Source of the DNA: a virus
Lineage: Duplodnaviria > Heunggongvirae > Uroviricota > Caudoviricetes
Reading direction: 5' to 3' (one strand)
Length of the DNA stretch: 24,178 nt
IMG/VR virus record: IMGVR_UViG_2537561992_000036
Below are positions 9,001 to 12,000 of the stretch, piece after piece; the first letter of the stretch is position 1, and every line of letters begins with the position of its first letter. The position numbers are program-made.

Positions 9001-12000
9001 GCGTGGTCTTACGCTACAACAGTTAATTCATATGCTTATTATTTTAATTGCCTTGATAATAATCACCCCAGCATCAATTAAAGAGTGGGTAGATATAAGG
9101 AACCCCGAAATACTTCCAGATCACTGGATGTATTACGCAATGCTTTTGTGTATCAGTTATGTTCTGAACAGGGGGATGGAGTGAACCGCCCCGGAAATCC
9201 TGGAGACTAAACTCCCTGAGAAAGAGGTAAACAGGATGACTAAAAATACTCGTTTTTCCCCCGAAGTCCGTCAGCGGGCGATTCGTATGGTTCTGGAAAG
9301 TCAGGATGAATATGACTCACAGTGGGCGGCAATTTGTTCCATTGCCCCAAAGATTGGCTGTACGCCGGAGACTCTGCGTGTCTGGGTTCGCCAGCATGAG
9401 CGGGATACCGGGGGCGGTGATGGTGGGCTCACCAGTGCTGAACGTCAGCGTCTGAAAGAGCTGGAACGTGAAAATCGTGAACTGCGCCGCAGTAACGATA
9501 TCCTTCGCCAGGCTTCCGCTTATTTTGCGAAGGCGGAGTTCGACCGCCTCTGGAAAAAATGATGCCACTGCTGGATAAGCTGCGTGAGCAGTACGGGGTC
9601 GGACCGGTATGCAGCGAACTGCATATTGCCCCGTCAACGTATTACCATTGTCAGCAACAGCGACATCATCCGGATAAACGCAGTGCCCGTGCGCAGCACG
9701 ATGACTGGCTGAAGAAAGAGATACAGCGCGTATACGATGAAAATCACCAGGTATACGGTGTGCGTAAAGTCTGGCGTCAGTTGTTACGGGAAGGTATCAG
9801 AGTGGCCAGATGCACTGTGGCACGTCTCATGGCAGTTATGGGACTTGCCGGTGTTCTCCGGGGTAAAAAGGTCCGCACTACCGTCAGCCGGAAAGCCGTT
9901 GCCGCATGCGACCGCGTAAACCGTCAGTTCGTGGCAGAACGTCCAGACCAGTTGTGGGTGGCTGATTTTACCTGGGTAAGCACATGGCAGGGCTTCGTTT
10001 ATGTGGCGTTCATCATTGATGTGTTCGCCGGATACATCGTGGGATGGCAGGTCTCATCATCCATGGAAACAACATTCGTGCTGGATGCACTGGAGCAGGC
10101 GTTGTGGGCCCGTCGGCCGTCCGGCACAATCCATCACAGTGATAAAGGTTCTCAGTATGTATCGCTGGCCTACACGCAGCGGCTTAAGGAAGCCGGATTA
10201 CTGGCATCAACAGGGAGTACTGGCGACTCGTATGACAACGCGATGGCTGAGAGCATCAATGGTCTTTACAAAGCGGAGGTAATACACCGTAATAGCTGGA
10301 AAAACCGGACAGAAGTGGAACTGGCCACACTAGCGTGGGTGGACTGGTATAACAATCGACGATTGCTGGAAAGGCTGGGCCATATTCCTCCGGCAGAAGC
10401 AGAAAAAGCTTATTATGCTTCCATCGGAAATAATGATCTGGCAGCCTGAGTTCACAGATAAAATACTCTCCAGGAAACCCGGGGCGGTTCAGCGTGATGT
10501 TGATCGCGCAGAAACAGATTTACTTATCAACCTGTCAACGCTTACCCAGCGCGGTCTGGCAAAGATGATTGGCTGTCATGAATCGAAGATAAGCAGAACG
10601 GACTGGAGATTTATTGCTTCGGTCTTGTGTGCTTTCGGAATGGCATCAGACATCAGTCCGATTAGCAGAGCTTTTAAGATGCGCTTGATGGACTCACCAA
10701 TAAAAAACGCCCGGTGTGCAAGACCGAGCGTTCTGAACAAATCCAGATGGAATTCTGAGGGAATTACTGGATCAATCCACAGGAGTCATTATGACAAATA
10801 CAGCAAAAATACTCAACTTCGGCAGAGGTAACTTTGCCGAACAGGAGCGTAATGTGGCAGATCTCGATGATGGTTACGCCAGACTATCAAATATGCTGCT
10901 TGAGGCCTATTCAGGCGCAGATCTGACCAAGCGACAGTTTAAAGTGCTGCTTGCCATTCTGCGTAAAACCTATGGGTGGAATAACCAATGGACAGAATCA
11001 CCGATTCTCAACTTAGCGAGATTACAAAGTTACCTGTCAAACGGTGCAATGAAGCCAAGTTAGAACTCGTCAGAATGAATATTATCAAGCAGCAAGGCGG
11101 CATGTTTGGACCAAATAAAAACATCTCAGAATGGTGCATCCCTCAAAACGAGGGAGGTTCCCCTAAAATGAGGGAGATCCCTCAAAACGAGGGAAAATCC
11201 CCTAAAACGAGGGATAAAACATCCCTCAAATTAGGGGATTGCTATCCCTCAAAACAGGGGGACACAAAAGACACTATTACAAAAGAAAAAGAAAAGATTA
11301 TTCGTCCGAGAATTCTGGCGAATCCTCTGACCAGCCAGAAAACGATCTTTCTGTGGTTAAACCGGATGCTGCAATTCAGAGCGGCAGCAAGTGGGGAACA
11401 GCAGAAGACCTGACCGCCGCAGAGTGGATGTTTGACATGGTGAAGACCATCGCACCATCAGCCAGAAAACCGAATTTTGCAGGGTGGGCTAACGATATCC
11501 GCCTGATGCGTGAACGTGACGGACGTAACCACCGCGATATGTGTGTGCTTTTCCGCTGGGCCTGCCAGGACAACTTCTGGTCCGGTAACGTGCTGAGTCC
11601 GGCCAAACTCCGCGACAAGTGGACCCAGCTCGAAATCAACCGTAACAAGCAACAGGCAGCCGTGACAGCCAGCAAACCAAAACTCGACCTGACAAACACT
11701 GACTGGATTTACGGGGTGGATCTATGAAAAACATCGCCGCACAGATGGTTAACTTTGACCGTGAGCAGATGCGTCGGATCGCCAACAACATGCCGGGAAC
11801 AGTACGACGAAAAGCCGCAGGTACAACAGGTAGCGCAGATCATCAACGGTGTGTTCAGCCAGTTACTGGCAACTTTCCCGGCGAGCCTGGCTAACCGTGA
11901 CCAGAACGAACTGAACGAAATCCGCCGCCAGTGGGTTCTGGCTTTCCGGGAAAACGGGATCACCACAATGGAACAGGTTAACGCAGGAATGCGCGTAGCC

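Follow-up and report, generated by a model that had tools for sequence, protein, structure and literature searches.

A probable six-iteron origin of the Stx-phage type within gene O of a defective lambdoid prophage of Escherichia coli

The replication origins of Stx phages contain six iterons (1, 1', 1'', 2, 3 and 4), as opposed to four in lambda (Kozlowska et al. 2020, PMC7466680), a form first described by Nejman et al. 2009 (as cited in PMC7466680). Kozlowska et al. also described the 13 additional amino acids of the O protein of Stx phages and noted that their iteron 3 differs by one base. Binding of O and support of replication have been demonstrated for the origins of P27 and 933W by EMSA, footprinting and plasmid transformation: efficient O binding was seen only at the four iterons beside the A/T-rich region, and a P27-derived plasmid no longer gave transformants once iteron 1 or iteron 1' had been mutated (PMC7466680). 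It was proposed that the extra units raise the local concentration of O or stabilise the O-some, the binding of Stx O being weaker than that of lambda O (PMC7466680). For lambda itself, three iterons suffice for growth (Moore et al. 1981, as cited in PMC7466680).

We analysed a window of 24,178 nucleotides, by which we mean the whole stretch of DNA studied here. It is part of the draft E. coli contig ADUN01000092.1 (assembly GCA_000188755.2), a 6,273-bp stretch of which is an exact substring of the window; on the contig, the window spans roughly 10656-34833. A repeat search across the 24 kb found a 17-nt unit six times and delimited six units of about 18 bp at 11138-11262 on the plus strand, inside gene O. 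The units start at 11138, 11158, 11177, 11197, 11221 and 11244, i.e., with start-to-start spacings of 20, 19, 20, 24 and 23. Over the left part of the array (11138-11214), TRF reported a period of 20 (3.8 copies) and a period of 39 (2.0 copies, 89% matches). The degenerate pattern TCCCYYAAAWYRRGGG matched the six iteron sites and nothing else on both strands of the window; it had no match in 100 dinucleotide-preserving shuffles of the window, which argues that the six units are not a product of chance. The original prediction, which placed six tandem units here within O, is therefore borne out by the repeat search and the pattern, both of which give exactly six at the predicted coordinates. 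All units are imperfect inverted repeats (TCCCTC...GAGGGA), with outer TCCC/GGGA arms that are self-complementary in six out of six units and with 8 to 12 of the 17-18 positions self-complementary overall.

The individual units, all on the plus strand, can be matched to those of the described origins (we take the names 1, 1' and 1'' from PMC7466680). The distal unit 1 (ATCCCTCAAAACGAGGGA; 11138-11155) is an 18-mer identical to the unit at 11177 and belongs to a 39-bp block that also contains iteron 1' (TTCCCCTAAAATGAGGGA; 11158-11175). The latter is a diverged extra unit, specific to the six-unit type, and its sequence recurs in H-19B, in the Stx1a phage and in 40 IMG/VR contigs. Iteron 1'' (the same 18-mer as unit 1; 11177-11194) aligns with positions 39034-39051 of lambda and is the equivalent of lambda iteron 1, and the units at 11197-11214 (ATCCCCTAAAACGAGGGA) and 11244-11262 (ATCCCTCAAAACAGGGGGA) correspond, by alignment and by pattern match, to lambda iterons 2 and 4. 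Between them, iteron 3 (11221-11238) is the Stx-phage variant, with A at 11233; the corresponding base is G in lambda and phage 21. An A/T-rich region (11263-11305, plus strand) lies to the right of the iterons, colinear with that of lambda, although its A run at 11286 is recorded with five instead of six residues; GC content over 11250-11309 is 0.35 and the AT skew is 0.59, a strong A skew. In lambda, unwinding begins in the A/T-rich region to the right of the iterons. The whole origin lies within O, downstream of the N-terminal DNA-binding domain, since the Pfam Phage_rep_O match ends upstream of the array. At gathering thresholds, Rfam returned no RNA family at or near the origin, its only hits being the ALIL pseudoknots of two insertion sequence (IS) copies.

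How does this array compare with that of lambda? The original prediction gave four units there, correctly: the records of lambda (NC_001416, iterons at 39034-39118) and phage 21 both annotate four iterons, which align with the third to sixth units of the window. These four units, proximal to the A/T-rich region, have the same spacing (20, 24, 23), and the A/T-rich region and the surrounding O are colinear with those of the window and about 98% identical to them. An alignment of the window with lambda, phage 21, H-19B and a Stx1a-converting phage is likewise colinear, at a mean identity of about 98%, except for the 39-bp block (units 1 and 1'), which the window shares with H-19B and the Stx1a phage and which both lambda and phage 21 lack; iteron 3 of these two phages is also one base off. 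The two extra units had been expected to add 39 bp while locally preserving the frame, and they do form a clean 39-bp block of 13 codons, in frame. Because the origin lies inside O, the protein gains 13 residues (IPQNEGGSPKMRD/E) in its linker, and an intact six-unit O measures 939 bp (312 aa) versus 900 bp (299 aa) for lambda O.

The six-unit form is common. In the phage collection, where a coverage of at least 80% of the six-unit query can be reached only by a six-unit array, we found the six-unit junction at 100% identity in 72 records, including P27, the EDL933 Stx phage and many Stx1a and Stx2a phages; the four-unit junction was present at 95% identity or more in about 56. The difference from lambda is thus no anomaly, lambda being one of two common forms. 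Among 5,426 complete E. coli genomes, the six-unit junction was found in at least 358, and the best 80 O loci in IMG/VR fall into 40 with spacings of 20, 19, 20, 24 and 23 and 40 with the lambda spacing of 20, 24 and 23. Functional phages with the six-unit array include H-19B, 933W, P27 and BP-4795, so that related functional phages normally do have six units, the circumstance that the original prediction had itself named as speaking against it. Two of them, H-19B (AF034975) and BP-4795 (AJ556162), are independent records of the Sanger era. A single spacer base separates the array of the window from the commonest six-unit array (G instead of C at 11176). The exact 125-nt array of the window, including this G, occurs in three IMG/VR contigs, so the G represents a minor natural allele.

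The extra units evidently arose by tandem duplication of a two-iteron block. The two blocks of the window differ at 5 of 39 positions, and the diverged copy does not vary from record to record; the duplication is therefore an old one that has become fixed in a large phage lineage, and no recent event. The original prediction had instead considered that the copy number might mark replication slippage at this origin, with a lambda-like four-unit origin gaining two units in this genome alone. The array would provide the substrate, given that units 1 and 3 are identical 18-mers and that the 39-bp period lends itself to slippage or unequal exchange, and a 67-bp deletion between iterons in sister genomes (described below) indicates that it is recombinogenic. 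However, a fresh duplication would have left two identical blocks, and the same diverged block is found in the phage records, E. coli genomes and IMG/VR contigs counted above, among them phages sequenced decades apart. We therefore regard a recent, private expansion as extremely improbable, and the array does not stand out as a copy-number change. The prediction had also raised an assembly artefact. An artefactual expansion of the array itself was rejected, since the extra units are diverged and identical across many independent records; the array sequence is a genuine natural form, and this concern survives only as regards its placement at the present locus, where an artefact is possible.

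The closest described systems are the six-iteron origins of P27, 933W, H-19B and BP-4795. They share with the window the number of units, their order (1, 1', 1'', 2, 3*, 4) and spacing, the position inside O, the A/T-rich region and the Stx-type base in iteron 3, and the O region is overall 99.0-99.6% identical; they have C where the window has G at 11176. The features that set the six-iteron subtype apart, i.e., the 39-bp block with iterons 1 and 1', the 13 additional residues and the Stx-type iteron 3, are all present. This degree of resemblance makes it very probable that the array is a lambda-type, O-dependent replication origin in the six-iteron form typical of Stx-converting and related lambdoid phages. 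As such it is already known, published and experimentally characterised, and it is a standard natural form. The element that hosts it is different: a defective, non-Stx prophage in which O, P and cII contain frameshifts as recorded and an IS takes the place of pR, cro and cI.

If it works like its relatives, dimers of O would bind each inverted-repeat iteron of about 18 bp and bend the DNA into an O-some, the adjoining A/T-rich stretch would unwind, and P would deliver the host DnaB helicase. In a six-iteron origin, the four units beside the A/T-rich region are expected to be bound strongly and the two distal ones weakly. This scheme draws on PMC7466680 and on established lambda biology, with the binding and replication data coming from the origins of P27 and 933W.

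More distant origins of the O type keep the iteron motif. In Pantoea eucrina (595-678) there are four units with the lambda spacing, in Trabulsiella guamensis (622-705) also four, and in Pantoea stewartii (617-761) six, with a spacing unlike that of the window. Since counts and spacings vary among the Pantoea and Trabulsiella origins, the number of units has changed more than once in this family of origins. The search also returned low-coverage contigs, several of them of about 48.4-48.5 kb, from species-representative assemblies of Shewanella, Pseudomonas, Neobacillus, Oceanobacillus, Bradyrhizobium and others, which carry a lambda-type four-iteron O with spacings of 20, 24 and 23. These are most simply explained as contamination by lambda control DNA.

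The array belongs to a defective lambdoid prophage located beside ybhC, in which integrase and excisionase are present and the interval from Q to the lysis genes contains no stx genes. The replication region has the order cII remnant, O, P, ren. Upstream of it, an IS3-family element (9177-10492, plus strand) has taken the place of all DNA between a truncated sieB and about codon 10 of cII, with the loss of the repressor gene cI, cro, pR and nutR; accordingly, homology to H-19B begins at position 10490, 30 nt inside cII. The cII remnant (10493-10758, plus strand; Pfam Phage_CII) has had its first ~30 nt replaced by the end of the IS and lacks a T at 10679. An inverted second copy of the IS3-family element was identified at 14121-15436 on the minus strand from Rfam and from comparison with E. 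coli SJ2D. Each copy contains an ALIL frameshifting pseudoknot (Rfam RF01497), and the pair brackets cII-O-P-ren-ninB. Further downstream, the SJ2D annotation places a gene of the lpxR family of lipid A deacylases at ~17500-18460 on the minus strand, with a truncated antiterminator gene on one side and Q on the other; the gene has the look of prophage cargo (a moron).

As recorded, the genes for replication are broken. Gene O (10791-11727, plus strand), the replication initiator gene that holds the origin, is split over three frames (10791-11063, 10988-11413 and 11239-11727) by 1-bp deletions at 10983 (AAA to AA) and at 11286 (A6 to A5, inside the A/T-rich region). The first of these frameshifts cuts the Pfam Phage_rep_O domain, so that the first fragment matches profile positions 2-46 and the second 47-95. 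Gene P (11724-12426, plus strand), which encodes the helicase loader, is frameshifted by an extra G at 11795. The window as recorded thus lacks the intact O and P and the upstream pR of a functional lambdoid replicon, with the proviso that the frameshifts may be sequencing errors. With cI, cro, pR and the start of cII lost to the IS and with cII, O and P frameshifted as recorded, this copy of the origin cannot initiate replication on its own.

Several observations bear on the nature of these frameshifts. The indels at 10679, 10983, 11286 and 11795 were found in none of H-19B, lambda, phage 21, the Stx1a phage, SJ2D, the L129 prophage (see below) and the three IMG/VR contigs that share the exact array of the window. 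A single contig in the entire gene index encodes the truncated 90-aa N-terminal fragment of O, and a look-up of the middle fragment (141 aa) found no record. Three of the four indels are changes in homopolymer length (the exception is 10679), as are most other indels between the window and SJ2D. From this pattern, the frameshifts in cII-O-P are probably sequencing errors of the draft assembly. Elsewhere in the window, a comparison confined to SJ2D showed an extra A at 2504, in the xis region (again a change in homopolymer length and probably also an error of the draft), and dense substitutions and indels at 21012-21080, where the SJ2D annotation has pseudogenes upstream of a DUF6645 gene.

SJ2D is the best match to the window as a whole (99.9% identity over 24 kb), and it is 67 bp shorter. 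The difference falls in the iterons: the SJ2D array (11640-11696 of the SJ2D locus) consists of unit 1, unit 1' and a hybrid of 1'' and 4, i.e., three units. The deletion corresponds to window positions 11177-11243, runs between the two copies of a 12-mer (ATCCCTCAAAAC) that the third and sixth units have in common, and removes exactly three spacings (20+24+23); PGAP flags the O of SJ2D as frameshifted by the collapse. We found the three-unit junction at 100% in the O26:H11 strain 11368 and in at least two dozen other closed genomes. A query with this junction matched 355 genomes at a coverage of at least 80%, a number that is not a count of three-unit arrays because it includes six-unit arrays whose two partial matches were joined. 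The evidence for three units consists instead of 25 single-piece 100% matches among those listed and of 20 matches in the same context. The latter are defined by the junction between the IS and cII: all closed genomes with this junction among the matches listed (20, at ~99.4% identity, including SJ2D and E2865) have the 67-bp deletion, and no closed genome among them combines the junction with six units. The closed O26-type ybhC prophages (11368, SJ2D, E2865) thus represent the same prophage as the window, with the same junction and 99.9% identity over the window, and differ in the deletion that leaves units 1, 1' and the 1''/4 hybrid and in the resulting frameshift of O. The collapse is a real, recent, iteron-mediated change in copy number; it is a loss, and it took place in the relatives and not in the window.

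Do the six units truly sit at this locus? The cII of the window is of the SJ2D type, and O-P carries five substitutions relative to SJ2D (11176G, 11700T, 11817G, 11826A and 12021C). Each of these occurs as an allele in an unrelated six-iteron lambdoid prophage that is intact (L012; L129, strain F2_407_2_2) and that, in the case of L129, has its own repressor, cro and cII and an uninterrupted O of 939 bp. We considered that the five substitutions could be errors and rejected this, since all are alleles of natural intact prophages. At 11660, at 11722 and from 12455 onward the window is back to the SJ2D type, so that two paralogous alleles make up a fine mosaic over 10760-12460, which switches from one to the other within 22-40 bp. 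Outside the multi-copy segments (O-P, the IS copies and the patch at 21012-21080), there are 2 substitutions relative to SJ2D in ~20 kb.

One way to account for this mosaic is that the draft assembly merged two paralogous prophage copies into a mixed or collapsed consensus over cII-O-P, in which case the array would be assigned to the wrong locus and the true ybhC copy may have three units. The uniform deletion in closed genomes with the same junction points in this direction, as do the changes between SJ2D-type and L129-type alleles over as little as 40 and 22 bp, the four private single-base indels in the same 1.1 kb, the near-absence of substitutions over the single-copy remainder and the single contig encoding the 90-aa fragment of O. 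Yet the contig is continuous through the region, and patchy gene conversion between co-resident prophages gives similar mosaics. We give this explanation close to an even chance.

The ybhC prophage could instead be a real recombinant that kept or regained six units by recombining (through homologous exchange or gene conversion) with a co-resident, intact lambdoid prophage of the L129 type, the frameshifts then being the true decay of an unselected gene. The origin of the five substitutions in a natural intact prophage fits this account; the segment of P at 11800-12440 is 100% identical to three closed genomes, and strains with 3-5 copies of O per genome offer ample partners. The alternating tracts are, however, very short, and there are more indels than private substitutions; with one exception, these indels are changes in homopolymer length, a pattern more typical of sequencing error. 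Moreover, the combination occurs in no closed genome among the matches listed. Such a recombinant seems to us a serious candidate, at somewhat below an even chance, and overall we hold mixed consensus and patchy gene conversion to be about equally probable. The identification of the array as a six-iteron origin is unchanged by either account because the six-unit array, as a sequence, is a standard natural form.

Six iterons are the textbook state of origins of the Stx type, with a role that has been studied experimentally, and the array therefore carries little weight as a discovery. This copy comes from a draft contig with private frameshifts and a mosaic of alleles, and it is unfit for inferences on the evolution of origins without read-level confirmation. 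The origin of a widespread defective prophage might be polymorphic at ybhC, with six units in the window as against three in closed genomes of the O26 type, and an orphan six-iteron origin that lacks an initiator of its own might be fired or titrated in trans by the O of a co-resident Stx prophage with identical iterons. We consider this improbable; if true, it could locally amplify the chromosome or damp the replication of the Stx phage on induction. At most, we infer, the origin could be used in trans by the O and P of a co-resident prophage with the same iterons. The remaining interest of the locus lies in the quality of the data there and in the collapse of the array in the sister genomes, where the 67-bp deletion is a small but clear natural case of a decaying prophage losing units by iteron-mediated collapse of its array.
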